A stretch of DNA of 64,000 nucleotides, taken from assembly GCA_964187785.1 (NCBI GenBank), contig OZ076409.1, positions 26,290,001 through 26,354,000 on the forward strand. Reading direction: 5' to 3'. A program made the translations under genes and the position numbers. The notes under the pieces were generated by a model. That model did no database searches, was not told where the DNA came from, and was given only the letters and a program-made list of their open reading frames with translations. Numbering within the stretch: the stretch's first letter is position 1; each line of letters begins with the position of its first letter. This document shows, one piece after another, positions 36,758-63,255 of this stretch. This DNA comes from Amphiscolops sp. MND2022 (taxonomy: Eukaryota).

Positions 36758-38470
36758 TCATTGGTAAAGTAACGAGTCACATAGAAAATCCGAAAGAAAA
36801 AAGTGAGTACTTAAAACTTCAGAATTGTTTGAGATAAAATTGCTAGCAATGTTTGTTGTGAAACTTTTAACTGGCGATTCTGATGAAGTTTTCAGGTTAG
36901 TGGGTTTTAGGTCAAGAGTAAGTAACCAATTGTATGATCTGACGATGGTGTTCTTTAAGGAACGCGCTTGGAGGATAGTTCGAGAGTAGGGTGTTACTAA
37001 AAGACCTTTTGCTTTTCCCCGAAAGTTCCGATCGGACGGAATGTAATTACAGGATACAAAATTGAAAGGTGACTTGTCTCTATGCTGCTTGAACAACTCC
37101 CGTACAAGCACAAAAATATGTCTTTTGGAATAGAATGTTGTATCAATTTGGTCACCAAGGCATTTGCAGTGTTTTTTAGTTGGCGCATTTTAGAAGAAAA
37201 TGAGCCCGACTATTACAGTGGCTAGTTTTTTTTTCGTCAGATAACAGAAGGTATGCGTAGTGGACACTTTTTACAGAACAGAACTACTAAACTAAAGTAC
37301 TGGATCGGCAAACGGGGAGCGTATTTAAGATAGTGCAAAGGGTCCCCCCTTTCAGTTACTCCATTTTTATCGTAAGATACAAAACCTGACGAGACAATAG
37401 GGTCCCCCTTTGAGTTTTTTTCGGCACTGTGCGACTTTTTTTCGAAATTTTTTTTTGTCTCCAAAGGGTCCCCCCTTCAATTTTTTGCTGTTTTGCGACA
37501 AAATGGATGTTGGAAAATTCCAAAGGCCCCCCCCCTTTCAGTTTTTTTCGGCACTGTGAGATTTTTTTTTAAAACAAAAACTTTTCATCCCTTCAATTTT
37601 TTGATGTTTTGCGACTGAATGGATGGTGAAAAACCCCAAAAGGTCCCTCCTTTCAGTTTTTTTCGGCACTGTGAGATTTTTTTCCGAAAATTATTTTCTC
37701 TCCAAAGGGTCCCCCTTCAATTTCTTTGATATTTTACAACACATTGGGTGTTTAAAAATCCCAAAGGGTCCCCCCTTTCAGTTTTTCGGCATTGTGAGAT
37801 TTTTTCGAAAATTTGTTTTTTCTCCAAAGGGTTCCTCCTTCAACTGCAACAAAAATGTTGACAATTGCGGAAGTGTCCCTCTTTTAGCGCGCCGGGGGCT
37901 CGCGCTAGCGGGGCCCGGCGCGCCACTCAGTCCATTTTTTTGGTTTTTCGAAAAAAAATTCGATAAAATTTCGAAAAAAAAATTTAAAGTTTTTTTTCAA
38001 AAAAAGTCATTTGCGCTTTTTGAGCCTTAGATATGGCGCCGACTTTAGACGTTCTTGTCTTGTTCAATAGTAAATCCGTGTCGAGGGCAGGATTTTGGAA
38101 AGGTTGTACACTGCAAAAGCGACAGTTTCGCAATTTTCTACACAAACGATTAGTTTGTTTGTGACAAGTCACTCTCTAACGCGTTCAATTTTGCTAGTAG
38201 TTTCATGTGATTTATTTCGACCACGGATATATACAATTGTATCATCTGCGAATAATGTTATTTTACAGCGAACACAATTCTTGGCGTCAATATTGTAGAT
38301 GAGAAAGAAAAACGGGCCCAGGACAGAGCCCTTTGGAACTCCACGAGTTTTTGAGTGCATTTGAGCGCTTGTATTGTTCGATTTTTCATCAAAGAAATGT
38401 TGTCTATCTTTTGAATGATTTCTAATGAAATTGAGTGCTGGTCCTCTAAACCCATATCTGTAACTCTTCT
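36758..38470 (-). pseudogene. Decayed LINE reverse transcriptase fragment split by a HINE-like insertion
   Basis: GVPKGSVLGPFFFLIY and LFADDT motifs in ORF 38169-38360, and an ORF2 C-terminal-like remnant at 36758-37188. Confidence 0.65.
37172..38063 (+). mobile_element. HINE-like family A copy
   Basis: Same 5' hairpin, 3' GCGCCGACTTTAGACGTTCTTGTCTTGTT end, and expanded internal AAGGGTCCCCC repeats. Confidence 0.65.
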
Positions 38471-38775
38471 CTACAAAAATTGAAGGATCGCTAACAGTAA
38501 ATTTTGCGACGTGCGGCAGTCCGTAGCTGTTGAAAATGGCCGTGTTATCAGTATGTTGGAATAATATTTTCCTCTAGTAAGCCGCTTGATTTTCTCCCTA
38601 TGAATGTGTTTGTCTTTGGTCACAGTCTATTCTATTGTTATTAGGTTAAAATCGTTTTAATTCCAACAGTACTTAGCTGAAATTAGACAACCATGTCCTC
38701 TCCCAAACTGTACTCTTCGGCAAGAACATGTCGGTCCTGGAACGGACTGTGACAACATGCTCTATAAAAATTACG

Positions 38776-40692
38776 TGTCGCAGGCTGCCGCCTGTGACGG
38801 TACAAAGATCACAACGACGGTGGAAGGACAAGAAATAGCTGTCGGCACTCTACCCACCTACTAGAGAAAAGTAATTGAAACTTTTACATTCCAGTATTTT
38901 ATACGTTGTGCTTATTGGAATTGTTCGTTTTGTTTTGTACGTATAAGTATTAGTATTAGTCTGTTAAAGTTAACAATTGGAAAGTTAAGATGAGATGTCT
39001 GCAAAATGCAATTGGCAATGTAAACAATTGGAGTAATCAATACAGCTAGGCAGCATAAAGGAAACGAGTTCAAGTGAACGTAACTTCAATGCCAGAAGCG
39101 TCACTTGATCTCGTTATGCTAGCTAATCAAATTCATCCATTTGGCGGTGCTACCATTGTATTCATCCATTGGCCAAATTAGGCCTAGTGACGTAATTTCA
39201 CTTTCATTGTTAAGTACATTAGTCTAATGGCCGGTTTCGGCCGTCTAGTGCCTGTAAATGATAAGTTGCCTAATATGCTTCTACTCAATTGGTAACTGAG
39301 CGATTGTGCTTTCATGTTAACCAGATGCCTCATTTGTGCAGTTTTATGCTTTATTCCAGTAAGTGGCCACTTGCCAAAATATTGTTTTCTGTTGATAAAG
39401 CCAATTGGATAAAGGCCGATTTCGGCTCTTTTGAAATCAGCCATCCAAATGTCAAATTAGAGTGATATACATATATGCTCATGCTTTAATGTCAAGTGTG
39501 GCTGTATTTACACTAGAAATTATTAGTGATCTCTCTTTAAAGTGATCAGTGCAATTGATAATAGTTTGCGGTGTAATATTGAGTGGTAGTCTCGTAGACT
39601 AATTTGGCTAACCTACCCAATTGATATGTACCAATCATGACCGTATTGGGCATGATAAACATGTGCAGGAGTACACGGCTATAGTAGTTAGCCACCAAGA
39701 TAGTCCAACCGTGCAGACACGTGCCGACTCGGGACAGTTGAAATTCTTCAAATATTTGTTATGTAACACCCTGTTTGATGTATCTCATACCTTTCAAATG
39801 TTTAGTTGTGTAAAGAATGAAGGAATTTGAAAGGCCACATGACCTCCCCAACCACATTTCGGCGGCACTTAGATGTTCGTACGAAAATACTTATCAGGTG
39901 CTTTCGGAATGTTGTTGTCACATTTTTCGAATAATTATGTCTTGAATACCCGCCTGAGGGAGTATATATAGGAGCTACTCTTTTAGACGGACACAATTTT
40001 TTGTTTCGCTCCTTACATTCAGTTAATACCACAACTTTGTTGTAAACCTTCTCCAAACACTGTTTCTTGGTGTTAAATAGTTTATTATTTGACCAGGTTC
40101 GTTTCAATGCCTACAACTAGAAAGCAGAAAAAGGCAAGGAAGTCGAGAGGACTTGAAATGTTATCAGATATTGAGAACTTAGATATCATGCTGGGTGAAA
40201 ACCATTTTAACACGAGGGAAAGGGAAGGCAGCCCAAACAGTAATATGCTTAGGAGATCTAGGAGCTTTGTGAGCAATGAGTCCATAAATGAAGAAGAGGA
40301 CTTAGAAAGAAATCAGAGAAATGTTAACTCTGGAACAAAAGCCGAATGCGACCAAAATTCAGTTACAGGCAATTCTAGTGCCGAGATAAACAAGTTGTCA
40401 AGTGAACTAAATTCTCGTATTTCACGGGAAATGGACGAGATGATGAATTCTGTGAGTGTTCAGATACAAAGAGCCATAAGTAATGCAAAAAGCACTCAAG
40501 TACATCCCCAGATTCAAAACGCTATTATGGCCGGATCAGTACACGGGACCAGAAAGGGATGGGACGCCCCGTCCGAGAGACTGGAACTAATTCCCGAAGT
40601 TCAGCGAAACTTAAACGCAAAGAGCAGCCTGAGAAATGAACAAGATGAAAATCAGCTGAACAATGATTAACCTGATCTAAATGTTCATGACA
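38776..40692 (+). repeat. 5' LTR (1917 bp)
   Basis: TGTCGC...ATGACA, highly similar to 53204-55134. TATA-like TATATATAGG at ~39963. Confidence 0.95.
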
Positions 40693-41819
40693 TGGTGACA
40701 GGAGACAACGAATCTCCAAATCCAGTTCCTGAGTTTCTCACAGGACGTATCCCATCAAGAACTCATCTCAATCAGTCCTACGAGGACATCAACTTTGACA
40801 CGACGATCCCAGCGCACGAGAGAATTGCTACAGCTGCCGATCCTGATCCCATTACTAGATTGGCCGACCTCTTGACTACGATGCAGAATAGACCAACAGC
40901 ACAACAACTCACAATACGCCCAGTCAACTCCAACACTATGACTTTTGACGGCAAGAGTGAGAAATTTGAGCTGTTCGAAAATCTCTTCCACACTATGATC
41001 AAGATGCAGCCAGAAATGACCGAGCAAATGAAAATTAATCATTTTCATTCATTGTTGAGGAAAAATGCTCTCCAGACGTTCAGAAATATCAATTCGACAA
41101 ACCGACAAACCCTCGAAGACGTACTGGTCATTTTCAGACGAAAATATATCAAACCCGAATCACAGGCGACTGCCAAACATAAATGGCACCGTCTGGTCTT
41201 TGACCCTAACACGATGAAACTGCCTGATTTCCTTGAAGAATTGAATCAAGGGGCAGAGAAAGCGTTTGGAGACCATGCGCAGAAAATGATTGACAGCTTG
41301 CTTTACGCAAAACTACCACCAAAACTGAAGCGGTCCGTCAATATGGCCAGATTAGAAAATGGCTCATACGATGAGATAGTTGCTCATTTGGAGAGAGAAT
41401 TGGAGCTTAACGCTCTCGAGGAGTCAGACGACCTACCAATGGCAACAATGACTTCCTCATCTGCCAAGCCCAAAACTCCTCTGTCCACTGGGCAAATGTC
41501 AGACATCACTTGCAATTACTGCAAGGAAAAGGGCCACATGGTCAAGGACTGTGAGAAACTAAAAAAGAAAAAAGAGAAAGATGCCCAACAAGGCAAGTCG
41601 ACTCACAAGAAAACATATCCGGAGTGTGGCACTTGTGGCAAAAAGAACCACCCAGAAGAAAGATGTTGGCAAGGTGCCGGTGCACATCTTAAACCCAAAC
41701 GCACTAGACCCGAGGACTCAAATGATAATAAGCCTAATTCAAAGGCTCAGAAACCTCAGACCAAGCCGACATCATCAAGTTCCCAATCCTCATCTTCTAA
41801 TGATGAGTCAAAAAATTAA
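40107..41819 (+). CDS. gag: Gag (about 570 aa; one premature stop in this copy)
   Basis: ORFs 40089-40670 and 40692-41819 are in frame. TAA at 40668 is TAC at 55110 in the other LTR. Capsid-like FDGKSEKFELFE region and two CCHC knuckles (CNYCKEKGHMVKDC, CGTCGKKNHPEERC). Confidence 0.85.
40693..40704 (+). promoter_or_regulatory. Putative primer-binding site
   Basis: TGGTGACAGGAG directly after the LTR CA. It resembles the complement of a tRNA-Leu 3' end (TGGTGTCAGGAG); tRNA identity is uncertain. Confidence 0.55.
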
Positions 41820-44800
41820 CTTCGCCACGACTCCAATATAACGAACTAGTATCTGTCCGCCAATACATCAGGTCGGACCCTCCAACGAAAGCCTTTCTCC
41901 AATACAATCAGCAGTTGATGGGTTATCCCTCTGTTGTCTGGCAGCAACAGATGGACAAAGCTATCATCATTACTTACAACAATACCCATTTATTCCAAAA
42001 ACCAATTCCTGCTTGGGACCCTGACTATACAACCACCTTCAATACCCGGTTCAGGCCCATTCCCCTGATCGATGATTACAATCCAACATACATCGATCCA
42101 GACTATGGCAGAGATCCCTATTGGGACAACGAGCTTTACAACCAAGATTTACTGCAATTTCAATATGTCCTAGACGATATTGACCATTATAACAGAACAG
42201 TCCACGAGAACCCTCCAATTACCCATAACAAGAAAACACGAGCACTAATCGAAAACTGGCAAATGAATGATGGTACAAACCATCCAGTGTTCCCAAACCC
42301 ATTGGGGACCGAGAATCCTGAAAACAGTGGTGAATCCACCCCACAATCATTATTAGACGAAAAACAGTTCCAAAATGTACTCATCACCAGAGATGGTGAA
42401 CCAGACTGTATACCCCTGTCAACCAAAATCAACCTCAAATGCAAGAAACGCATGCTTTATTTCCCAATGGACTTTGGGGAATTGACCATTGATGGATTAA
42501 TAGACACTGGGGCACTGTCCAGTGCAATCCCTGAAATGGACCTCCGGAAAATCCGCCTCCTATCTCCACAATCGGTTATCCGAGAAGGTCCGCCTCCGAA
42601 CTTCCAAATCATGGTCGCTAATGGGCAACTGGAAACTCCTAAGAGTACCATAGAGCTCAAATTCGAAGTTGGTGACATTGAGTTCCATGAAATCTTCTTA
42701 GTAATGGAACATTTGACATGACCGATCATTGGACTGATGTTCCTTCAAAGAAATCACACAGTTTTGGACATGAGACAAGGAATCTTGAATTTCCCGTTCT
42801 TTTCAATGCAGCTAAAAACAGCGGATGATAAATATTCAAATGTACAAGAACCAATTCTCAACCCCACCGAAATAACCATTCCGCCAAACGATAGAGTCCT
42901 AATTAGGACCAATTCCCTACTTAACCCCGAGAATGCTGTCACCGGGATACTACAACCGAGCGACCATCTCCATGAAGAAGGCGACATCACATTTTGCCCA
43001 GCTCTAGTCACTCTGAATGACGGCAATATAATGATACCAGTGAACAACTTCACAGACCACCCTTACAAACTTAAAAAGGGACTTCACATTGCCAATTTCT
43101 CCATCATGACGCCAGAACAGATGAAGTATGTCAAACCGGTAGACCCGGCATCGACCTGGCATCTTTTGCAAAACAACCAAGAGCAGGCAGCCCACTATGT
43201 CAGCAATCTTATCAAGACGAATAAAAATTTTCAAAATTCTGAAAATTACTGGTTCCCAACCCAAGAAAACCCTGGAAACCCTGAGGAACACACACCTATC
43301 CAGAAACGAATCCTCCGTGAGTTACAGGCCTTACAGGACCTGGAGACACTTGACCCCACCAAAGATAACGAATCTCGTGCGAAATTTCTAGAAAACTTCG
43401 ACTGGAAAGATTCCACCCTTACTCCTGAAGAAAAGGAGAAATTTGAAGAATTACTAGTGGAATTCCATGATATATTTGCACGACATCGATTCGATATAGG
43501 CATGAACGAGGAATTCAAGGTGAAATTGACACCTACGGACGATTCCCCAGCCTATAGCCAGAGCCTCCCAGCCCCTATCAACCTGAAGGAGGACATCTTA
43601 GTCGAATTGGCCATGTTACACAAATATGGCATAATCACCACCCTACCATTTTCGAAATATGCGAGTCCAATATTTGCACAAAAGAAACCTAACGGAAAAC
43701 TCAGACTCTTGGTTGACTTGAAAAAAATCAACAACCTCATCTCGGATGATTATATCAATAATAATCACCCCGTTAGTACACTAGTCGATGCCGCCCAACA
43801 CTTGGCAGGCAAAAAACTGTTCTGTAAATTAGACTGTTCGCAGCATACCACTGCCTGCCGATGGCTGACCAGCGTTCGATCGAAATGTTGGCTTTCAATT
43901 TTGCCAGTCGCACATTTGCATACAGACGTTTGGCACAAGGCCTTAGCCGGGCACTGTCCGCATTCTCGAGTTTCATGAAGGAATACCTCGACACAGTCAT
44001 TAAAGCGGATCAGTGTGCCCAGTATTTGGTTGATATCGGCATCGCGGCCAATGATGCTGACCACCTCATAGCGAACCTGAGAGCTACGTTCAAATGCATT
44101 CAGGAAGCAGGCCTTAAGTTAACAATGCACAAATTTCACTTCGGTGCAAAAGAAATTGATTTTCTCGGACGAACTATTACCCCACAAGGCATCAAACCCC
44201 AGAAACAGAATGTGCAAAATTTTCTGGAAAAGACCAAATTCCCGAAGTCGAAAAAGGCTTTACAACGCTATTTGGGATTCCTAAAATACTCCAGGAATTA
44301 TGTCCCAAGACTCTCCGAACGCCTTGCTCCATTCTACAAGATGCTCAAAAGTGACGGAAAGGTCCTAGTATCGAAAGAATTAGTCCAGCAATTCGAAAAA
44401 ATCAATAGAGCACTAGACAAATGTTGCGACTTGGCCCTACAGCAACCCATTCCGAACAAGCAAATTGCACTAATGACTGATGCAAGTTTTGGTGCAGCCG
44501 GGTACGCGGTCCTAATTGAAGACGACCCAAGCCAGAAATTTACATCACTCAGGAGATCGTATGCACCGGTCGCATATGGATCAAAAGCTTTCACCCCAGC
44601 ACAGATCAAGATGTCAATTTATGCCAAGGAATTCCTTGCAATTTATTTTGCATTCAAAGAATTTGGCCATATCTTCTGGGGTTCGCCCAAACCAGTCATT
44701 ATCTTAACTGACAACAAAGATGTAACACGATTTTTCCAAACGAAAATAATACCCCCAGCACTGTGGAACGCATGTGATTATGCTATTCAGTTCAATTTTG

Positions 44801-46960
44801 TCATAGAGCACATCCCGGGGGCACAAAATACAGCTGCTGACTATTTGTCCCGATTGGAAGCAGATCCGAAGGACAAATTAGTGATGAAAATTCGCGAAGA
44901 TGTACAAACACTACCGATCGAAATCAATGTCCAATCCGCAGGGGTGTCACAAGAAGAACAAATCTTCTACACCAATGACGACAATGAGACAGAAGAACAG
45001 TATTGGGCAAGAAAAGAAGCAATCAGGAAAAATCCAGCAACTGATGAGCCCACTGTTACAATACAAACTCTGTCAACAAATCTGGTCAAGCAACACCCCG
45101 ATATACAAGTCCGATTGAGGAAGACGAACCAGATCATTATCGAGCAATCCAAAGATGCGGTACTACAGCAATTGAAAGCGAAACTGCTTCATGAAGAGTA
45201 TTCAGAAAATCTACTGCATCAGGATGCCCGATACAGGCACTATGCAAACAATCTGGAACGAATTGTACTAAAGGACGAAATCCTGACAAGGCAATACTTT
45301 GACGAAACAGGGAATGTTAAATACCATCAAATTCTGCTCCCGCAACACTTACTCCAGGAACTGCTTCAGTCTCTTCACGGGACAGCGCATAGACATCCTG
45401 GCATTTCAAAAGTGTTGCAGGAAATTCGACAAAGGTATTACTACCCTAGCATGGCTAAACACGTCAAAAATGGGTAGAGGGGTGTGAGGAATGCGCAAGA
45501 GACAAGCGAGTCCCCAACGCAACAATTACGCCTGAATTACTCAACTTGCCCGAATAAACCTTGGACCTGAAGACGCCATGCAAATCGACCTATTGCCGAA
45601 TCTTCCCCCAAGTGGAGGGTTTGAAAATGTCCTAACAACAATTGACGTATTTCCCAGATATTTGTTCGCCTTTCCTCTTACGGACGCATCAGCGATCAAC
45701 GTAGCAAAAGCGCTCATTGACATTATGACCAAGCATGCATACTTACCGTCAACACTTATCACTGACAAGGGTACTGCATTTACTTCCACGATCATTGCGG
45801 AAATTTAGCAAATTTTGGGCATAACACTCAAATGTGCAACAACAAAACACCCACAAACAATTGGGAAATTGGAGCGGACCCATGCCTCACTGAAAACAAA
45901 CCTCAAAACGGCATGTGGAGAATACCGCCGACAATGGCACAAATACTTGCCACTAGCAGTACTAAATCACAATACCAGTTACCATGCCAGCATCGGTTGT
46001 GAGCCGACGAGAGTATTTCATGGAAGAATTCCATATAATATCTTGGATCACAAGCTTGGAAATAATCCAAACGAGCAAGTCAACCCAACAACCGAATTCG
46101 CTGAAGAAATCCAAAAACGGACAAACATCTTGATCGACAAGACGAAGCACAATATCATGCAGTCGTACATCAAGTACAAAGAATACTATGACCGTAAGGC
46201 AAAAGCCGCCCCATTAATAGAGAATGAATACTGTTTTGTCTTACAACCGAAAGCAGATCATCAAGGATCAAAAATTCCATTCCGAGATTATCGTTGGGTT
46301 GGACCATTTATAGTCCAACAGGCTTTACCTAACGAAAATTACATTGTTAGACGAATAAAAACAAACAAGACTCAAATCTTGCATCGGATTCGCCTTAAAA
46401 AGTTTGTCCCCAATCAACCGCTTGAGGACAATTTCCGGGAACAGCGGTTACAGCCAGACGAGGAAATTATCATTCCGCAAGATGATTTATACGTCATAAC
46501 GTGGGAAACCGACTTTGGAGGGCAGCTAGTTACACGAGGCAACGAACCTATTCCGACTAGCATGCCGAACGGCGAACGGCCGAATGCGGCAGAACCGATT
46601 CAAAATGACGTAGACGAGAAAGAAGCGGGTCAAATAATCACGCGAGAAGAATTAAACAACGACAATGCGGCGCACAGCCAGAACGACTGCTTAAGTGATG
46701 ACGTCACTAAAAGAAATGAAGCTACCGAAGTGACAGGAAATGAAGAATCTGACTGGCCGAATCCGGCCGTTCCCCCAAGAAACCAAGAAAAATCTTCGCC
46801 GAATACGGCAGATAGACCGGAAAACGATGAAATTTTTTCAGAAAGAAATTCGATGAATGAAAACGATACACAAAATTCTCCAAACAGGTGGGATGATATA
46901 ATCTCAGGCCTAACCCCAACCCAAACTACTCAGAAGACTTCAGATATTAGAAAAGACTAA
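41810..46960 (+). pseudogene. pol: Pol polyprotein (protease, RT, RNase H, integrase), disrupted
   Basis: LIDTGA protease; RT (ASPIF, LRLLVD, KLD; catalytic motif reads YLVD); RNase H (TDAS, KEFLAI, TDNK); integrase (H..HPG..C..C, QIDL, TDKG, ERTH). Stops at 42719, 45555 and 45806; frameshifts near 43850 and 45470. Confidence 0.92.
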
Positions 46961-47186
46961 ATTCGGCCCAGAAGACGAGCTTGAATTTTACTCTTTCTTT
47001 TCTTTTAGTTTTTCTTTTTCTCAAAGTCCCATGAGGATACTTTCGAATAAATAATGGGACACAAAGCAAACCCCTTTTCAAGTGGATAATATAGGGGCAC
47101 AGATATGAAATCATAACAAACAAATACAGAATCAGAAAATCAAGAAAGAATACAGTTTCGACTTGTACATAAATACACATGTACAA

Positions 47187-50100
47187 TTAAACATTAGACG
47201 ATCCGGACACAGACTCGCTGAGGACGGATGAGGAACGGGAACGAGCAGCTCTCTTCTCTGTACGTTTGCGCTTACTGCTACTAGGCACCTTCAATGCCGC
47301 ATCATCCAGGACTGAGGACGTATCGTTGACTTCCAATTGAGCAGACCCATCTGAAGACTCCGAAACTGCGGAACGATAGGAAGACAGAAGCGACTTGTAT
47401 ATTTTTGTCCGCCCAAAGACATCAACTGTCTCCCAAGGGTAATAATTGGGCGAAAAAGCAGACGACCCAAAAGAGGCAGAAAGAAGGGAGAAACTAGTGA
47501 GATTAGATTCGCTGGTACACCTCGCTACAGAATCAGGAACACCGATCAAATAACTCTGGATGGGGAGAACGACGTCAATGAAGCGACCCCGCTGTCCAGA
47601 AGTATCAACCCTCCCCACTTTCACAACTGGAAATTCAGGACTCACAGTGGTAACGCACAGGCAACACAACTTGAATAAATGGAGGAGATGCTCTCGTGTC
47701 TGCAGGAAATCAAGGTTTATCAAAAAGTCTATGAGGTCTTTAGCCTCTTCTGTAACTTCGAGTCCGCCAGAGTATTTAGCGCGAAGGTAGTCAATCAGTT
47801 CGACATATTGGTCTCTGCATGCCGCTTCGACTGAGGCACTGATCCAAGAGCGGCGCTGGAACGAACTGAAGAGGATGTCAAAATGTCGGAGTGCTACCTC
47901 GGTAGGACGTTTGACCATGATATGCGGGTCAAAAGCAGCCAGCCCCTTGATGATGTTAGAACTGAGCCCAGCCTGTCGTTGTACTTCACTAAGCAAATGC
48001 TTAAGATAGGACATGGCATCCTGGACGAACTCGGCCTTAATAGTCTCAGCAGTCTTTTGGACTAGGGCCCGATCCGACCGTTTTCCAGAATGGACTCCTT
48101 CAGCCTTTCGCTTGCAAGCGGAGGTAACTTTGTTGGTCATGTTGAGCCGGACGAGAAATTCCCCAGCCGCCATGAGGGTTCCGTCACCTACTTGGAATCC
48201 CAGGAGGAGGAACCAGGCACTTGGTAATTGGACTGAATCGCTAGTGAAACATCTGAAGCACAGCTGGTAGATGAATTTGGAAGCCTCCCCACAGAGCAAA
48301 AATGATGCATCACGCCAGTGTTGAGCGTTGATAGTGAAGCTAGTGTTATCTAGGAAAAAGAAATTGGTACAACTTAAAGCGGAGGACTCGACCAAAGTTG
48401 ATCGAAGCAAACTAACACTCACTAACGATCCGGCAAAAGAGTTCCAGCTTGACGAGAATGAAGTCGTCACAAATCAGTCCCCACTCAAAACTTTGCACCT
48501 GTAATAAGACTTGGTATTATTACAATAAAGCTGAAAAGGGGCGGGGGATTATCCCCGTCTATATACCTCAAGCAACTCCTAATCAACATATATTTGAAGG
48601 AAATAAAGATTTGGTCACCCACCCGAATACGAACTCCTTGACCTTGTTGCTGTGGCACGTGCGTCGTCAAGTAACTCGTCACTGGTTTCCATTCCTCAAT
48701 CAGCTCCTGACAAAGGGTCGGTAAAGTGGAAAGCTCCAATTTGCAGCTGGAAATCGCCTGGGAAAGAAGATCACAACTTAGAATCGGGCGACTAAGAAGA
48801 TTCTCCCTACTTAGTCAACATCTCACTAACTATGTCTGTAACCCTAGAAAGATAAACGTTGTTTACCTGGGCTAGCTCAGGGCTTCGCGGATACCAATCT
48901 TCGGAGTGTGACCCGCCAAGGGAGATGACTAGACCGCGCAAGACCGAGAAAAAGTCTATGTGACCAAAGACGCTGTAACTGGTTTTATGCATCATCTTGG
49001 ACAGGTTCAGTTGGTCGAAGCGGAAGCAACTTTGCACAGCCCGGGAAAAGAGGGAGGAATAATCAACTGTGCGAAGAAGGTCAACGGAGCTTCCAGAACA
49101 TGCCACTATGTCGGCGTTGGTGGAGACAACTGACAAGAGTCGGGACAATGACCCCAACTCACCGGTCAGATCTGTAGCAGGCAGCTGACTCCTGCAGATG
49201 AGGACTCTGTGAAGATTTTGGACTTCCCAATAGCGTACTGTCATGTACCGATTAGGGCCCCTGTCCTCAAACTCGATAGCGAAGCACTGCTCAGCTGTAA
49301 TTTGCTCTGCCAAGTGACTCATAGTGCATTTGAAGATGTGTTGGAAAATAGCCTGAAACGGACAAGTAAATTTAGCAACCGGGTTAATTATATGGACGTA
49401 CTTGGTTGACCTATAAAAAGGAGTTTACCGTGATGCGTTCTTCCGACCAATCGAAATCGCACAAGCTGGCTTGGTAGTCAGTGTGGGAACTGACTCTCGA
49501 CCACAGATTCTTCAACAATGAGAAGTCTCCTTGGGATTGCAGGAAGTCTCCTACGATGGACAGCTGTAACTTCGCTCGCGAATCAGGAGTGACTATGGCA
49601 GTAGGCCGCCCCTGCATGAAGTCATCATAGAAGGGAAACCTCTCTCCTACGTCCACAAGATCAGTATGAATGAACTTCGGCAATTCCTTGGCAAGTTCGA
49701 TTGCGGTCAACACCTTCCCATTTTGGCCTCGAACCCGGTGCCGTACCTTCCCGCTGACAGGGTCCACACTCTTGAGGTGTTCGTACCTCCATCGCTGGTC
49801 ACGCCGCAAGTGCCTCTCTGAACGGTGGTGGCGCAAGATTTCAAAAGCACTCTTTGACCGAATCGAGAAGTTCTTCTTGCACATATGGCACCAAACCATA
49901 TGCGGGTTATGGACAGGATCAGCGGGCCCAGAGATAAAGGATCGGGTCCACCCGATCTTGGCGAAGAACTCTTCTCGCATTGGGACCCCTCGACTGGCAA
50001 GTCTTCTCGATCTGTTCGGGAGTTTGTGTCTAGCGGGACTTTTCGCCTTGGTCCCTCGTGCTTGCTCTTGGAGTTCCAAAAGAGTAGTATCCTGACTGCT

Positions 50101-51659
50101 GGGGTCAGTGGTCTCGCCTATGACCGTAGTACATGAATGAGCAACTCTGTCCTTTCCTTGGGACGATGGGGCAAGTTGGGAGTCACCACCTAAGGTCGCT
50201 GAAATTAAGGCCATTTCAGTAGCGCTGTCTGATTCCCCTTCAAAAGAAGAACCCCCTGTGTCACCTGCACTGGTAGGAGTTAGGGCTCTAGAGTCTGCAC
50301 TTGAATCGTATTCAGCCTCCGAAGAACTCTGGTCACCTTGGTCCCACCGACCTGGAGTCTCTGCCCTGTTCTTGATGAGGAAGTGAGATATCTTGGACGG
50401 CGCGACGGTGGGTTTACCCTTAACGGCATCAACGACCATTTTCTCCATTGTAGAGTAGGACAATCGAAGGGTTTCATCACTTAAGACTCGCAACAAGTGG
50501 TACATCTGTGCCTCTGGAAACGCCACAGTGGGGTGACCTAATGGAAGGGTGAATGGTTTGGCGTCAGCAAAGTACGTCTTTAAGATGACTCGGCTTCGAC
50601 CAGTCAATTGTGGGAGTTGGTCGTCAGGCCCTCGGGAACTGGAAGGCTTGCCAGGATCCATGTTGTCGTGACCTGGTCCTGACTCGTCGCCGGCTTCAGT
50701 CCCGGATTCAGATCCAAAGGGGACAGAGCTATAAAGTGCTGGCCCATCTTCATGACCCGTGTCGTCACTGGCCTTCTCACTCTCAGTCGGGTCATCTGTC
50801 AAGAAGTGGACTTTCGGGTTGTCTTTCGGCAGCCCTGGGAAATCGCAAGTGGAGGACGTGTTATCTCCTTCATTCCGTTCTTGTAATCCTGTAATGCCCC
50901 CTGACTCTAGTAAGGGAACTGGGACGAGAACTGGCAGGTCAGACTGTGATCCGATAACGACGTCAAGGGCAGTCTCAAGGTGTGACAGGTTGGTTGACGG
51001 CTCAACTGTCTCGGCATTGAGTGTCGGAGTACTTGACCTCGGGAAGGGCAAATTTAAGTTGTTTTCTGGAGCTCGCTGAACAGAGGCAGTGTCGAGGGCC
51101 GTGCCAACTGTGCTACTTGTCTCAACAACGAGACTAGCCTGTGCCTTTTCCAGTCGCTGGACTATCTCATCAGCATAAGAAGTAACTTCTGTGTTATTAT
51201 CCGGGCTATAAAGGAGAGCCACGTCCTCGGCCTGAACGCGAGAAAATGAAGAAACCAGTGGAAGAAAAGGTGGAGGAGACGGAACAGAGGGTTGGACTGG
51301 GTCAGAACTAGAGGAGTGACTGGCTACTTGAGTTAGTACAGCAGAGAGATTCGAGACAGCGTTGGCTGAGGCTTGTAACTCATCTTCACTCTGGTTTGCT
51401 AAACAGAAAGAAATGAAATTCGGCGGTGTGCTTCCTTGGAAAAAATCCATCGCTTTAGAAATCTTCCGGAAGTGTTTGAAAATTTGAATAGACATGTTAT
51501 CACGTGTCCTCTGATGGAAACAGGAAGCAGTTTACGAACAAAGTTAACCTTGATCACGTTAATTAGTTCAAAATACGATTACTCAAACCAACCTGTGTTG
51601 ACAATCTCTCGGTTTTGAAGTCCTTGCTCCTCTGGAAAGAGTCCCTGTTGGTCCGACAT
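47187..51659 (-). CDS. Spliced antisense cargo gene, ~1298 aa, BED-like zinc finger / hAT-transposase-like protein
   Basis: Exons 51659-51593, 51398-49429, 49352-48867, 48757-48623, 48498-48423 and 48349-47187 join through GT-AG introns into 3897 nt with no stop. WCHMCKKNFSI...EILRHHRSERH zinc finger. Exon 1 and the exact exon-5 donor are less certain. Confidence 0.78.
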
Positions 51660-52505
51660 GATCAGGTTTAGTGGCTGGATTCGGGCAAAAGAGGAAGAAG
51701 AAATGGAGGTCTTGCGTAGAGGCAATGCCGGCAACAGAACTACGGATGAATCCCAGTACCTGCAGAGATGGGAACGTAAACTGAGGAAAATGATGAAGAG
51801 AGTAAAGAACAAATAGTAGATGAATTGAATAGCGTAACAATTAAAAGGGTGAAAGTTGGAGTTCGTGGCTGAAGGAAATTATCAGACTAATATTATATGG
51901 CTATTTACATATTTAAGTTGTACATGGAGTCTGCCAGCGAAATGTACAGAGATCTTTTCATTATTTACAGCTTGTTTGATCAGTGGCCATTTACGGCCGT
52001 TTGCCCTATTCCGTTTTGCCGTTCTGTTCAGTTACCTTAGTTACCTTAGTTAGAATTTCCGCCTTTTTGGAATTATTTAGGTTTATTATTTTTGCCATTT
52101 TATTACTCATTTTCCAATTTATCAAGGCTCGATTCTGATTGGCCAAGACCATTTTGAAAACTTTGTGACGCAAGTCGTAATTGCTCTCAGGCGAGCCGTT
52201 AATTACCCACTTGAGAGGAAAATATTTGATATCAACAACTCGAGTGTTGTTCACACCCTCTTTGATGATGACTTAGATGAGGGGTATACATCAAATAACC
52301 AGAGGTCGCCAACTTGTTGAGGAATTCCATTCAGAATAGTTTACGACAAATCAGGATAATCTACCTAGGATTTAACCGCCAAATCGGAAACTTCGGGAAA
52401 AAACCCGAATTGGTCAGTTTCTTGAGTTGGTGAATTCATTCCACTTTGAAATCTTGATCAAGCTAGTCAGTCTTCCTACTCAACAAAATTGCGAAAAAGA
52501 TAATT

Positions 52506-53292
52506 ATGCAGAGATTTTATCTGACGAAAAAACTCTTCACTTTTGAAGAACAGAGCTCTGAAGAATCAACGGACTCAGTAATTTATATCTCCAGTGATAG
52601 TGAAGATGAAGTATCAAGCACTTGGGATTCAGATTGGTCCATGGACACCGAAGCCATTATTGATAGAATAGAGCGAGAAGTTAGGGCGACCCCAATTCCC
52701 ATTACTGGCCGTGCATGACAGTAGAAGATTTGGACGACGAGCCAGAAGCAGGACCTAGTGGCGCTCAACCAATCCCACCTCGCACCCCCAATTTGGGATT
52801 TGAGTATTTCAACAAGGAAATGTGCCTAGCCCCATCCAAGAAACAGAGGAATCCAAGGGTCGAGCTTTGCACTACTGTCCTACCAGTTCTAGAATCTCCG
52901 CTGTCCCCTCCTGCTCATGAAAGAGGGCCAAGTCTGGACACCCCCCTCGTTCAATCAACTGCAGGGGGCTTTTATGCTTCATATCACTTGCAGAACACGA
53001 GACCGTACCAAAATGAAAGTGAGAATTTGCATACTGGGTGTATGGTTTGCGGCAAATCAACGGACCAAATAATGCAGGAAAAATCAATTGGTACATGCAG
53101 AGATCGACGCCGGATAGTGAACCCGCCTATATCACTGCTCTTTGCCGTGAAGCCTACTCAAATGGTCTTAACGCCGGCAATTTGCTCTTCTTAACACCTG
53201 CTGTGTCGCAGGCTCCCGCCTGTGACGGTACAAAGATCACAACGACGGCGGAAGGACAAGAAATAGCTGTCGGCACTCTATCCACCTACTAG
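52506..53292 (+). pseudogene. Sense-strand accessory ORF of the Gypsy element (acidic, SIM-like motif, CxxC), two frameshifts
   Basis: Overlapping ORFs 52506-52718, 52715-53194 and 53038-53292 chain into one plausible ~260-aa protein. The last 29 codons lie in the 3' LTR. Confidence 0.55.
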
Positions 53293-55134
53293 AGAAAAGT
53301 AATTGAAACTTAAAAACTTTTACATTCCAGTATTTTATACGTTGTGCTTATTGGAATTGTTCGTTTTGTTTTGTACGTATAAGTATTAGTATTAGTCTGT
53401 TAAAGTTAACAATTAGAAAGTTAAGATGAGATGCCTGCAATATGCAATTGGCAATGTAAACAATTGGAGTAATCAATACAGCTAGGCAGCATAAAGGAAA
53501 CGAGTTCAAGTGAACGTAACTTCAATGCCGGAAGCGTCACTTGAGCTCGTTATGCTAGCCAATCAAAAACATCCATTTGGCGGTGCTACCATTGTATTCA
53601 TCAATTGGCCAAATTAGGCCTAGTGACGTAATTTCACTTTCATTGTTAAGTACATTAGTCTAATGGCCGGTTTCGGCCGTCTAGTGCCTGTAAATGATAA
53701 GTTGCCTAATATGCTTCTACTCAATTGGTAATTGAGCGATTGTTCTTTCATGTTAACCAGATGCCTCATTTGTGCAGTTTTATGCTTTATTCCAGTAAGT
53801 GGCCGAATAAGGCCACTTGCCAAAATATTGTTTTCTGTTGATAAAGCCAATTGGATAAAGGCCGATTTCGGCTCTTTTGAACTCAGCCATCCAAATGTCA
53901 AATTAGAGTGATATACATATATGCTCATGCTTTAATGTCAAGTGTCGCTGTATTTACACTAGAAATTATTAGTGATCTCTCTCTAAAGTGATCAGTGCAA
54001 TTGATAATAGTTTGCGGTGTAATATTGAGTGGTAGTCTCGTAGACTAATTTGGCTAACCAACCCAATTGATATGTACCAATCATGACCGTATTGGGCATG
54101 ATAAACATGTGCAGGAGTACACGGCTATAGTAGTTAGCCACCAAGATAGTCCATCCGTGCAGACACGTGCCGACTCGGGACAGTTGAAATTCTTCAAAGA
54201 TTTGTTATGTAACACCCTGTTTGATGTATCTCATACCTTTCAAATGTTTACTTGTGTAGTGAATGAAGGAATTTGAAAGGCCACATGACCTCCCCAACCG
54301 CATTTCGGCGGCACTTAGATGTTCGTACGAAAATACTTATCAGGTGCTTTTGGAATGTTGTTGTCACATTTTTCGAATAATTATGTCTTGAATACCCGCC
54401 TGAGGGAGAATATATAGGAGCTACTCTTTTAGACGGACACAATTTTTTGTTGCGCTCCTTACATTCAGTTAATACCACAACTTTGTTGTAAACCTTCTCC
54501 AAACACTATTTCTTGGTGTAAAATAATAATTTATTATTTGACCAGGTTCGTTTCAATGCCTACAACTAGAAAGCAGAAAAAGGCAAGGAAGTCGAGAGGA
54601 CTTGAAATGTTATCAGATATTGAGAACTTAGATATCATGCTTGGTGAAAACCATTTTAACACAAGGGAAAGGGAAGGCAGCCTAAACAGTAATATGCTTA
54701 GGAGATCTAGGAGCTTTGTCAGCAATGAGTCCATAAATGAAGAAGAGGACTTAGAAAGAAATCAGAGAAATGTTAACTCTGGAACAAATGCGACCAAAAT
54801 TCAGTTACAGACAATTCTATTGCCGAGATAAACAAGTTGTCAAGTGAACTAAATTCTCGTACTTCACGGGAAATGGACGAGATGATGAATTCTGTGAGTG
54901 TTCAGATACAAAGAGCCATAAGTAATGCAATAAGCACTCAAGTACTTCCCCAGATTCAAAACGCTATTATGGCCGGATCAGGACACGGGACCAGAAAGGG
55001 ATGGGACGCCCCGTCCGAGAGACCGGAACTAATTCCCGAAGTTCAGCGAAACTTAAACGCAAAGAACAGCCTGAGAAATGAACAAGATGAAAATCAGCTG
55101 AACAATGATTACCCTGATCTAAATGTTCATGACA
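53204..55134 (+). repeat. 3' LTR (1931 bp)
   Basis: Copy of 38776-40692, followed by the TSD TTACG. Confidence 0.95.
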
Positions 55135-56198
55135 TTACGTAATATTGCTCGCTATTATACAGAGAATCACAACCGACCGCTCATCAATGCATTTGATTTG
55201 CGCTTAAGTTGAACGTATTTTAATGATTTTCTGTATACAAAACTCAAAGAATTGTTTTAGGTTTTTTCCATACAACTAATTTAGCACGTTCATGGCATGT
55301 TTTACGAAACTGATGAAAATCTGCTTGAACGGCTGTCCTTCTTGTCAGTTTTTTCTTCTCTTTTGTTAATTCTTTGCAGCTTTATTTTATCCAAGTTCTT
55401 TACCTAGCAACAGCTGTGAAAGTATGATCATCGTTTGTGGTCCTTTCTCGACTCAGTTGGGCATCATCCTTCTATTGGCTGCCTACTGTAAGATTCTCGA
55501 TAAAACGTTTTTTTTTGTTTTCTGATGAGCGAACCCAAGCACGTTTTTCTTACAATTTCTGCAATTAGCTACTGAATGAATGTGGAAAGCTGGAAATTAC
55601 TTCCTACTAGGCCTAGACGTTAACCAGAATTCCTCAACGTGGTGAGTAAGTTTAAATTGTTCTTGAAACCTGTTCAGATTTAAATTTTTGAAATTTTCCG
55701 TTGAGGAGAACCATTTTCGAGTCTATAGATGACATCTTTGGTTATTTGTTATGGTAATGAGGAGCTGAAGAGAGTTTTTCAATAACTGGACTCAAGCTAT
55801 AAGAAAAATTTCGGTATTTTCAGCCCGTTAAGACTTTTCACGAATTCATTTTTTTTCAACACGGGATCTCTCTGATAGGTTTTTCTGCACTTTGCGACTT
55901 CATGTGAATTTTGATTGTTTTAAAAATTGTATAAAATGTTTATTTTAGGTTTCAAGTTAGGGGATCATCAATTTTTTGGCCTCCGATTCAAACTGCACCG
56001 AAGTGTGTCGAAAGGCCTTCACCAGTTCTGTTAATTTCTGCTAGAAATTAACAGAACTGGTGTAGTACACTTTACATTTCACTAGCTTGTCGGTTTTGAC
56101 TTTTGCTTGTTTTCAGTTAGAATATCCCCTTTTTGATGTCTAAAGCGTCCTATTGCTTTTTTAAGCAACTGGTCGAGCATTGACCGAAAAAACAATCA

Positions 56199-62110: not shown

Positions 62111-62733
62111 GTAAAAAAAATAACCAACCTACAAGCTAAATCGTTACCAAAAGTCGAAATTTGTTAACTTTCGACTTAGTATCTTTCAACAATCAGTTCT
62201 AGAATATTCCACAGACTCATCCAGGCTTTCTAAAGGCGGGGAACTTGAGAAGGCCGTCGCTTTGGTTTGTCTGGAACTTTTGTTGATTTTAACACTTGTC
62301 TTGACTTGTCTTAATTAGTCACACTGAAAGATTGCTACAGCTAGCTTAAATCAACGAATGCCTACTTTTGTTCAAAACTTTTATAAATCACTGATTATAC
62401 GCTAAGTTTTACAGTTTTCTTTGCAGATATTGTTGTTCAAATAAAAGCAGAGATGAATTTTCTCGGGTTTTATTGTTTGGTCAATCTTTTGTCTAATTTC
62501 CTGGTGCTTTTTGTTTAGGTAATCATTCACAAACTTCTTGAGAGCACCTGTTTAGGCAAATCAGTTGCAAATATCTTTTCAACCTGACTATAGCACCAGA
62601 AAACTGAAAGAAAAATGTGAAAAGACATCTTTGAATCTTGCAAATTTCAACTGCCAAAACCCGAATTTTACCTCAAACTTTCTCAATACCTAATAATCTT
62701 CCTTTCATAGTAAACAAGTCGATTTTCCTCAAA

Positions 62734-63255
62734 ATGGATTACCTAAGAAGTGTTTGGGGTTTAGATCAAACTCGGGTCGGTTTTCTCGAATATGGACAAT
62801 CTGCAACTTTCGAGCCCCCGGTGAAAAAATCTAAACTAGAGCCTGAAATAAAAGTGGAAGTTCTCAAAGCTATTTCACTTAATAATGAGAATGGTAGATC
62901 GGGAAAGCAACGTTCTCGTTATAGAGTTTTTGTTGTCGCGTCTGATGGAAAGGGGCTAGTCGGCCTAGGCATCAAAGTTCATCGCAACAAAGAAACTGCT
63001 ACTAAATGTGCCGGTGATCAAGCCAAAGCAGAAATGTTCCAAATATCTTTGAGCTCCTTTGATCCCGAATGTCCAGAAAAACATACAATACCACAACAAC
63101 TTTTCGGTGAATATGGAGACCTGAAAGTTACTCTAAATCCTGCCGCTCGAGACACTGGTATTGAATCCTCGCCTCTCGCAAGATTTCTTCTGCACCTCAT
63201 TGGAATCAAAGACTGTGTCGTTATGCCTGAATCTAGTAAGATGCCTGCCTACTAA
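62734..63255 (+). CDS. Divergent 40S ribosomal protein S2 (uS5)-like protein, intronless
   Basis: EVLK...RYRVFVVASDGKGLVGLGIK, HTIP...G.YG.LKVTLNPAARDTGI...L.LIGIKDC follow the rpS2 S5 N- and C-domain pattern. AATAAA at ~63289. Confidence 0.75.
   Translation: MDYLRSVWGLDQTRVGFLEYGQSATFEPPVKKSKLEPEIKVEVLKAISLNNENGRSGKQRSRYRVFVVASDGKGLVGLGIKVHRNKETATKCAGDQAKAEMFQISLSSFDPECPEKHTIPQQLFGEYGDLKVTLNPAARDTGIESSPLARFLLHLIGIKDCVVMPESSKMPAY

Follow-up and report, generated by a model that had tools for sequence, protein, structure and literature searches.

The stretch analysed here, referred to as the window, comprises 64,000 nucleotides of contig OZ076409.1 of Amphiscolops sp. MND2022 (assembly GCA_964187785.1, positions 26,290,001 to 26,354,000 of the forward strand) and contains a 16.4-kb long terminal repeat (LTR) retrotransposon with an intact gene on the strand opposite to gag and pol. 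From the order of its pol domains, this element of an animal genome is assigned to the Ty3/Gypsy order. Exons of the Wnt family, which is restricted to metazoans, occur in the same genome. Its LTRs, the sole direct-repeat pair that we found by BLASTN, share 96.34% identity over 1940 columns. The antisense gene lies between the end of pol (46960) and the start of the 3' LTR (53203) and is oriented antisense to gag-pol, which is the aORF-3R-type layout. It extends from 47187 to 51659 on the minus strand, and its exons of 67, 1970, 486, 135, 76, and 1163 nt, 3897 nt in total, join into a single frame of 1298 codons that runs from an ATG (51659-51657) to a TAA (47189-47187) with zero internal stops. 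All five introns begin with GT and end with AG, and each acceptor AG is preceded by a pyrimidine-rich tract. Read without splicing, the region consists of the stop-to-stop minus-strand open reading frames (ORFs) 47187-48473, 48485-48814, 48807-49424, 49411-51531, and 51579-51878. The initial annotation had proposed that an intact antisense frame of about 1298 amino acids is opened by five GT-AG introns with pyrimidine-rich acceptors; when the exons were joined and translated, both the frame and the five pairs of intron coordinates, listed in Table 1, held exactly to the base.

Table 1. Positions in the window of the antisense gene, its flanking sequences, and the retrotransposon that carries it
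Feature	Coordinates	Strand	Remarks
Conserved non-coding block, ~180-350 nt upstream of the ATG	51840..52005	-	From five-lineage alignment
Exon 1, coding part	51593..51659	-	Donor kept in all lineages
Intron 1, 194 nt	51399..51592	-	GT-AG
Exon 2, 1970 nt	49429..51398	-	Holds zinc-finger-like motif
Intron 2, 76 nt, phase 0	49353..49428	-	GT-AG
Exon 3, 162 codons	48867..49352	-	Predicted RNase H-like core
Intron 3, 109 nt	48758..48866	-	GT-AG
Exon 4, 135 nt	48623..48757	-	Spliced frame
Intron 4, 124 nt	48499..48622	-	GT-AG
Exon 5	48423..48498	-	76 nt in every copy examined
Intron 5, 73 nt	48350..48422	-	GT-AG; same position in every lineage
Exon 6, 387 codons plus stop	47187..48349	-	All-helical domain (predicted), C-terminal basic tail
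5' LTR	38775..40693	+	1.9 kb; BLASTN against 53203-55135
gag	40107..41819	+	Starts inside LTR (MPTTRKQKK...); stop in window copy at 40668-40670
Heptamer A AAA AAT, directly 5' of gag stop TAA	41810..41819	+	Protease next in -1 frame
pol (protease, reverse transcriptase, RNase H, integrase), broken	41807..46960	+	Pfam RVT_1, RT_RNaseH, Integrase_H2C2, Asp_protease
Conserved block in spacer between pol and antisense gene	47045..47058	+	Reads GAATAAATAATGGG, contains AATAAA
3' LTR	53203..55135	+	BLASTN

The gene occurs in many copies of the element and always at the same place. A search of the 1.07-Gb genome with the full 4.5-kb region, in which the best 33 of 3182 candidates were scored, returned at least 27 further full-length DNA matches at 82-94% identity. 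Exon 6 has at least 108 matches (the best 107 of 8071 candidates being scored), 94 of them without an internal stop, and these split into two tiers of 89-100% and 55-62% protein identity. We took 20 copies, ten per tier, down the list and irrespective of content, and in all 20 the integrase lies on the opposite strand, 227-645 nt beyond the end of exon 6. The antisense gene also stands beside the integrase at four of four loci termed L039-L042 and in all four long copies; copy C12 shows only the end of the integrase. Tail-to-tail arrangement with the integrase, in the same place and orientation, was thus seen in 28 of 28 other copies examined, and no stand-alone copy of the gene was found among these 28. 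Together with candidate numbers in the thousands, this agrees with presence in all or most copies, the second mark of aORF-3R-type genes. A one-off insertion or transduction of a host gene or transposon into a single copy might be suspected from the window alone, where an intact antisense gene accompanies a broken gag-pol. That imbalance, at least four lesions in ~6.9 kb of gag-pol against zero in 3.9 kb of the gene, is unremarkable (P roughly 0.1 by our own estimate), and such an event is refuted by the 28 copies with the gene in place and by the further full-length matches, so that we give it practically no credence. The assignment of the gene to the element in the initial annotation stands, as copies with the same gene and with conserved intron positions are plentiful in the host genome.

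Conservation extends to the exon-intron structure. In 11 other copies with 84-94% DNA identity, 107 of the 110 projected splice dinucleotides are kept. Four of these copies (L006-L009, ~85% DNA identity) retain all exon lengths and an uninterrupted spliced frame of 1298 codons, and the remaining seven carry frameshifts or stops in the spliced frame. Alignment of the window copy with L006 gives zero gaps in 3897 nt of exon, against gaps of 6, 5, 2+1, and 1 nt in introns 1, 3, 4, and 5; identity is 76-81% in introns 2-5 and 79-95% in exons. Three lineages with only ~65% DNA identity (C3a, C3b, and C12) have all five intron positions and GT/AG in place. Relative to the window copy, introns 2-5 of the diverged lineages fall to 37-49% identity, whereas exons 3-6 remain gap-free at 61-76%. 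All five positions are common to five lineages and to L039-L042, and they persist where synonymous sites are saturated. C3a has an intact 1256-codon spliced frame in which exons 3-6 measure exactly 486, 135, 76, and 1163 nt at 58% protein identity; L039, with a frame intact over exons 2-6, has the same four exon lengths. Intact frames were found in seven of the 19 distinct copies evaluated (the window copy, L006-L009, C3a, and, for exons 2-6, L039). Two details vary between lineages: the ATG of the diverged lineages lies 16 nt 5' of the intron 1 donor, and the intron 5 donor (window 48417-48422) is GC in six type-B copies (C3b, C12, and L039-L042). A second in-frame GT is present 6 nt downstream of the intron 5 donor in all lineages, and intron 5 may have alternative donors. 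No copy with a lost intron was found among the copies examined. Apparent fused matches in L039-L042 looked like intron-less, processed copies and turned out to be tblastn reading through retained introns; L041 still has intron 2, and reading through it encounters stops. The introns are therefore conserved across copies as well as across lineages, as the splice dinucleotides and the five shared positions attest. Being antisense to the genomic RNA, the introns never appear as such in the sense transcript and are therefore copied in every round of retrotransposition.

The coding sequence has evolved under purifying selection. By the Nei-Gojobori method, nonsynonymous (dN) and synonymous (dS) divergence of the whole gene between the window copy and L006 is 0.066 and 0.57, a dN/dS of 0.116. 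In windows of 100 codons along the same pair, dN/dS is 0.28-0.41 in the first 200 codons and 0.03-0.16 beyond. Exons 3-6 give 0.075 for the window copy and L006 and 0.058 for C3a and L039, the latter at a dS of 1.47. The reverse transcriptase (RT) region of pol yields 0.046-0.051 for comparable pairs, which puts the constraint on the antisense gene close to that on RT; within a transposon lineage, this implies that elements whose gene still functioned gave rise to more progeny. Overall, the dN/dS of 0.06-0.12 among copies signifies purifying selection, and the antisense gene belongs to the constant parts of the element and is maintained by selection. The antisense strand might instead act only as RNA, for example as double-stranded RNA that regulates the element, with the frame and introns being incidental. 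Non-coding antisense transcripts are known for micropia, TART, and IAP (PMC7264820), and intron 1 and the block upstream of the gene are conserved as non-coding sequence. Such a role does not account for dN/dS values this low at dS 0.4-1.5, for indels that occur in introns and never in exons, for exon lengths that are identical at 58% protein identity, or for exons that are better conserved than introns 2-5, and we regard it as very improbable. Selection could also act on the host rather than on the element if the gene were one of an ordinary family of host genes that happens to be linked to the element, or if it had been transduced long ago and were a mere passenger. Capture of a host gene is a possible origin, and other retroelements are not known to contain a gene like it (neither TRP28 nor any other Pfam family matched). 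This explanation is unlikely, although less so than a purely RNA-based one: none of the 28 copies stands alone, 8071 candidates are too many for host-level selection on each, and purifying selection between lineages is what one would expect if only elements with a working gene leave descendants.

The antisense gene and gag-pol of one element differ in their depth of divergence. In the RT region of pol (88% DNA identity), dS is 0.68 between the window copy and L006 and 0.63 between the window copy and C3a. For the antisense gene in the same pairs, dS is 0.43 between the window copy and L006, versus saturation between the window copy and C3a (proportion of synonymous differences, pS, 0.80; dN 0.29). 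Such unequal synonymous depths inside one element mean that its modules have different histories. In line with this, the gag-pol of the window copy is 82, 85, and 89% identical to that of L006, C3a, and C3b, and its 3' module (46960-53202) is 81, 64-67, and 65% identical, respectively, with the switch in identity located at about 46886-46903, at the end of pol. The integrases of the 20 sampled copies are 76-88% identical to that of the window copy in the close exon-6 tier and 64-86% in the distant tier, and this identity does not track the tiers. The pattern indicates that two or more deeply diverged types of 3' module have been joined by recombination to a common pool of gag-pol sequences. 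Template switching between co-packaged RNAs is established for retroelements, and we infer that it could be the route of this recombination.

Two non-coding stretches near the 5' end of the gene are candidates for its regulation. The block upstream of the ATG contains the A/T-rich TATA-like words TTAAATATGTAAATA and ATAATATTAG, followed by CTTCAGCCACGAACTCCAAC, beyond which conservation drops. It is matched by tblastx in all frames and is for that reason considered non-coding, and it is a candidate promoter of the antisense gene. The second stretch, intron 1, is the best-conserved part of the 3' module, in which the window copy is 96% identical to L006 and 80-83% identical to the diverged lineages; the adjoining exons reach 79-81% and 43-47%, respectively. 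It contains CACGTG inside a short hairpin-forming inverted repeat and the palindrome CTTCCGGAAG(TG) at 51463-51474. We take CACGTG and CTTCCGGAAG to be E-box-like and ETS-like words. A structured RNA in intron 1 was considered and not called, as the covariation is too thin: in an RNAalifold alignment of eight sequences, the covariation terms amount to only -0.6 and -0.4 kcal/mol, with one hairpin that has two compensatory changes. Rfam gave no match for intron 1 or for the whole window. On the other side of the gene, TGTACATATGTATTTATGTAC is conserved 3' of the antisense stop. The presumed transcription unit is also bracketed by an inverted pair of 14 nt (47178-47191 and 51913-51926, 86% complementary) around TGTACA, which is too short for terminal repeats. 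Both of its arms lie in blocks kept across lineages, and TGTACA occurs three times in the upstream block.

The predicted product has several recognizable parts. Residues 1-280 consist to 60-64% of Ser, Thr, Pro, Gly, Asp, Glu, Gln, and Asn and are net acidic, Ser/Pro-rich, and fast-evolving; conserved blocks begin at about residue 281. Judged by composition, the N-terminal half of the protein is acidic and disordered. An Env-like reading of the product was ruled out, with no 19-residue window exceeding 1.5 on the Kyte-Doolittle scale. A zinc-finger-like motif, CHMC-x16-HH-x4-H (CX2CX16HHX4H), occupies residues 526-552 (49810-49890) and is kept in L041 and C3a, and a single basic cluster, KRKR, is located at residue 1271 (47262-47273) in the C-terminal tail. 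Exon 6 has relatives in 457 clusters of a sequence library at E<=0.001, with 99 of these clusters reaching 1e-30 or below; an AlphaFold2 model based on 36 sequences is all-helical, with a mean predicted local distance difference test (pLDDT) score of 74.7 and 180 residues at >=90. For exon 3 we found 199 homologous ORF fragments. Its fold was modelled on a natural fragment, P0256, that reads through intron 2, with 29 sequences, exon-2 fragments being left out because of misplacement by MAFFT. In this model residues 110-160 have a pLDDT of 62-85 and form a strand-strand-strand-helix-strand-helix succession, and the core encoded by exon 3 is probably RNase H-like. Glu residues 27 and 29 (Glu-x-Glu) are invariant on the first strand of the core, and the predicted fourth strand is followed by a nearly invariant Ser-Gly, not by an acid. 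Transposase_28 (PF04195, TRP28) was not encountered in the Pfam scans of the large exons, and a scan of JGI metagenomes with the exon-6 alignment produced 95 pattern matches, none of them a relative.

Several leads point toward hAT transposases. The language-model neighbours of exon 2 carry zf-C2H2_12 and FAM200-ZBED5_RNase-like (scores 0.79-0.83) and those of exon 6 carry Dimer_Tnp_hAT and FAM200-GTF2IRD2-like (0.89-0.90), all of which are of lead grade. In a Foldseek comparison with the PDB, three entries of the hAT transposase Hermes appeared in the top 15 at E 0.02-0.07. The weak structural matches are to Hermes residues 142-263 and 368-572, with scores that are common for unrelated chains; both models match Hermes collinearly and behind an N-terminal finger, which is the hAT layout. 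The order of the predicted parts of the product, with a C2H2- or BED-like finger motif at the N terminus, then the possible RNase H-like core and the extended helical stretch, is collinear with that of proteins of this group (Hermes and the ZBED, FAM200, GTF2IRD2, and ZMYM1-like proteins). Unlike them, the antisense gene has no significant sequence or profile match, no recognizable catalytic Asp-Asp-Glu (DDE) triad or hAT C-terminal domain, and no inverted repeats, and it resides inside a retrotransposon. Pfam zf-BED did not match the finger motif, and zf-C2H2_12 (PF18658) had no match anywhere in the genome. On this evidence, the chances for and against an ancestry from a hAT-like or other RNase H-fold transposase appear roughly even.

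Taken as a whole, the observations are probably best explained by an element-borne accessory gene of a high-copy Ty3/Gypsy-order family that encodes a product of ~1300 residues. According to this model, a transposase-like (hAT-like) gene or a host zinc-finger gene would most likely have been captured long ago. Its own promoter would most likely be the conserved upstream block, perhaps with a contribution from the hyperconserved intron 1, and its transcript would be spliced. The product would be a nuclear, DNA-binding regulator or cofactor of the element, acting, for example, in transcription control, integration targeting, or counter-silencing, and at least two deeply diverged versions of the gene would now be recombining onto a shared gag-pol backbone. 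A more far-reaching idea, which we put forward tentatively and consider rather doubtful, is that the retrotransposon permanently took in a hAT-like, catalytically altered zinc-finger gene as a separately transcribed and spliced third gene, selected like RT and present as two ancient, shuffled "alleles," with intron 1 and the upstream block serving as a dedicated promoter or enhancer. The element would then be a stable chimera of class I and class II in which a transposase relic guides integration or defeats host silencing.

A number of results weigh against the accessory-gene model or against parts of it. Transcription, start site, splicing, and polyadenylation of the antisense gene are all things that we infer, no canonical AATAAA or ATTAAA was seen on the sense strand of the gene between its stop and pol, and a third transcription unit was not found in the element. 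A role as DNA-binding regulator is proposed from the motifs described above. In Pfam scans, all the large exons were without a family match at E<=0.01 and, with a limit of E<=10, gave only a zinc ribbon at E 0.011, and sequence and profile comparisons with the PDB gave chance-level rows only. The homologues of exon 6 are all unnamed ORF fragments of at most ~420 residues, and a search of longer proteins, which is weak evidence in this respect, found no annotated full-length homologue for exon 2 or exon 6. For exon 3 the mean pLDDT of the model is as low as 49, and neither this model nor that of exon 6 had a Foldseek match in the PDB at E<=0.001. In hhalign, the family of 36 exon-6 sequences scored a probability of 0.1% against five PF05699-bearing hAT transposases of the same genome, and further profile-profile comparisons with hAT transposases of that genome gave 2% and 0.07%. 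No convincing terminal inverted repeats flank the gene. These last results bear equally on the idea of a still-active hAT-like DNA transposase that would allow cut-and-paste movement of the element or of its 3' module as a second route. The weak collinear similarities to Hermes, the language-model leads, and the exchange of modules between pol backbones could be quoted in its favour. There is no recognizable DDE triad in the exon-3 core, where Ser-Gly follows the fourth strand, and the hAT dimerization domain (PF05699, Pfam) has no match on exon 6 at E<=10. The module is always found inside LTR elements, and its exchange is explained more simply by template switching. We therefore think that an active transposase is very unlikely, slightly more so than a role of the antisense strand as RNA only.

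The element that carries the accessory gene has the organization expected of its order. A likely target-site duplication, TACG / TTACG with one base ambiguous, is present at both outer flanks of the LTRs. In the sister copy L006/L063, gag is unbroken through the end of the LTR and the primer-binding region and encodes 573 amino acids (L063:5557-7275, minus strand). Its start lies ~590 nt inside the LTR (window 40077-40693 and 54525-55135), and only the last ~600 bp of the LTR are kept between lineages because the gag frame begins there. The Pfam matches of gag, zf-CCHC and DUF1759, are weak and both below the cut-off; DUF1759 is a family of BEL/Pao-type Gag. Three sister copies have A AAA AAC at the position of the heptamer that precedes the gag stop in the window copy. 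We presume A AAA AAT/AAC to be a slippery site of the retroviral -1 frameshift kind, and the heptamer looks like a retrovirus-style programmed -1 frameshift site. L063 has an intact pol ORF of 1380 amino acids with an Asp protease at 221-315, RVT_1 at 626-791, RT_RNaseH at 883-981, Integrase_H2C2 at 1179-1234, and rve at 1255-1350; the matches to RT_RNaseH and Integrase_H2C2 fit a Gypsy element. In the window, pol is interrupted by a TGA at 42719-42721 (GGA in three sister copies), a frame change near 43844, and a disruption at 45478-45808. Programmed read-through of a stop between protease and RT was ruled out, this TGA being peculiar to the window copy. The gag-pol of the window copy is dead, and the antisense gene of the same copy is intact. 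In L063 (1424-1476) and in C3a (11822-11942 of L017+L018), the integrase resumes in another frame past the rve core; the two shifts are unlike each other and may be independent lesions. The GAATAAATAATGGG block, which is 85 nt past the pol stop, is kept in five lineages and unique in the window, and might provide the poly(A) signal of a short gag-pol mRNA.

Other features of the window lie outside the element. Just upstream of the 5' LTR, at 37436-37778, are three direct repeats of ~102 nt that are 68-76% identical and spaced by 116-125 nt. A LINE (long interspersed nuclear element) remnant at 11921-14650 on the plus strand has an endonuclease-RT domain and RVT_1 in two adjoining ORFs with a stop between them. 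At 62635-63255, also on the plus strand, an open frame of 206 codons without visible introns encodes the N- and C-terminal domains of ribosomal protein S5 and may be a processed copy or an exon of the ribosomal protein gene.

The antisense accessory gene of Amphiscolops has counterparts in other lineages. Published examples of conserved antisense ORFs in the stretch from pol to the 3' LTR are those of the plant elements Grande (gene23), RIRE2, Retand (TRP28), and PvRetro13 and the fungal Boty gene brtn (PMC7264820, PMC11963269, and PMC8220671), and according to PMC7264820 the function of such genes is still unknown. Grande of maize, RIRE2 of rice, Retand of Silene, and PvRetro13 of bean resemble the present element in the position and orientation of the gene, in its occurrence in all or most copies, and in a long region between pol and the 3' LTR. 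For Grande, the same sources report a promoter of its own upstream of the gene and a nuclear product, for which a DNA-binding regulatory role was proposed (PMC7264820, PMC11963269). The present gene differs from the plant genes in its animal host, in the lack of TRP28 and of any other Pfam domain, and in a far larger protein of 1298 amino acids. It also has five conserved introns, whereas the available text of PMC7264820 and PMC11963269 does not mention introns. The region between pol and the 3' LTR holds a single 33-bp tandem repeat and no array. Outside plants, the brtn gene of Boty-like Ty3/Gypsy elements in Botrytis and Sclerotinia likewise has an antisense orientation and follows pol on the side of the 3' LTR (Zhao et al. 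2011, as cited in PMC7264820). It belongs to a different kingdom, the likeness is one of description rather than of aligned sequences, and the Amphiscolops product has a probable RNase H-like core. Among retroviruses, the HBZ transcript of human T-cell leukemia virus type 1 (HTLV-1) is spliced. HBZ and APH-2 of HTLV-2 are minus-strand genes near the 3' end of the provirus, and their products are nuclear regulators (PMC11963269 and PMC7264820). No sequence or domain similarity to them is expected. The antisense promoter of HTLV lies in the 3' LTR, according to PMC7264820, while the candidate promoter proposed here is internal (~51840-52005), and the element here is a retrotransposon without env. 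In the open-access literature searched, we found no animal LTR element with a gene of this kind and no transposase-derived antisense gene. Thus, of the conclusion drawn in the initial annotation, a dedicated accessory gene is upheld by position, introns, and selection, separate transcription is plausible, and the suggestion of an undescribed lineage, if it means an element of a new type, goes too far, since the layout is known from Grande, RIRE2, Retand, and Boty. Novelty may lie in the protein as such and in its size, in the five introns, and in the occurrence in an animal; the make-up of the protein, the hyperconserved intron 1, and the shuffling of modules also set the Amphiscolops element apart.

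Antisense accessory genes are known in plants and, once, in fungi, and the same layout is found here in an animal genome. Several features make this case tractable, namely, a very large product with recognizable parts, thousands of copies in several lineages, and selection as strong as that on RT. The five conserved introns would prove the production of an ordinary spliced mRNA from the opposite strand, if RNA data confirm them, and the pairing of one pol backbone with either of two old gene versions amounts to a set of natural "swap experiments." If the hAT-like origin is true, the element would be a clear case of a retrotransposon that has domesticated a transposase, and its antisense gene would provide a handle on the self-regulation or target choice of such elements.

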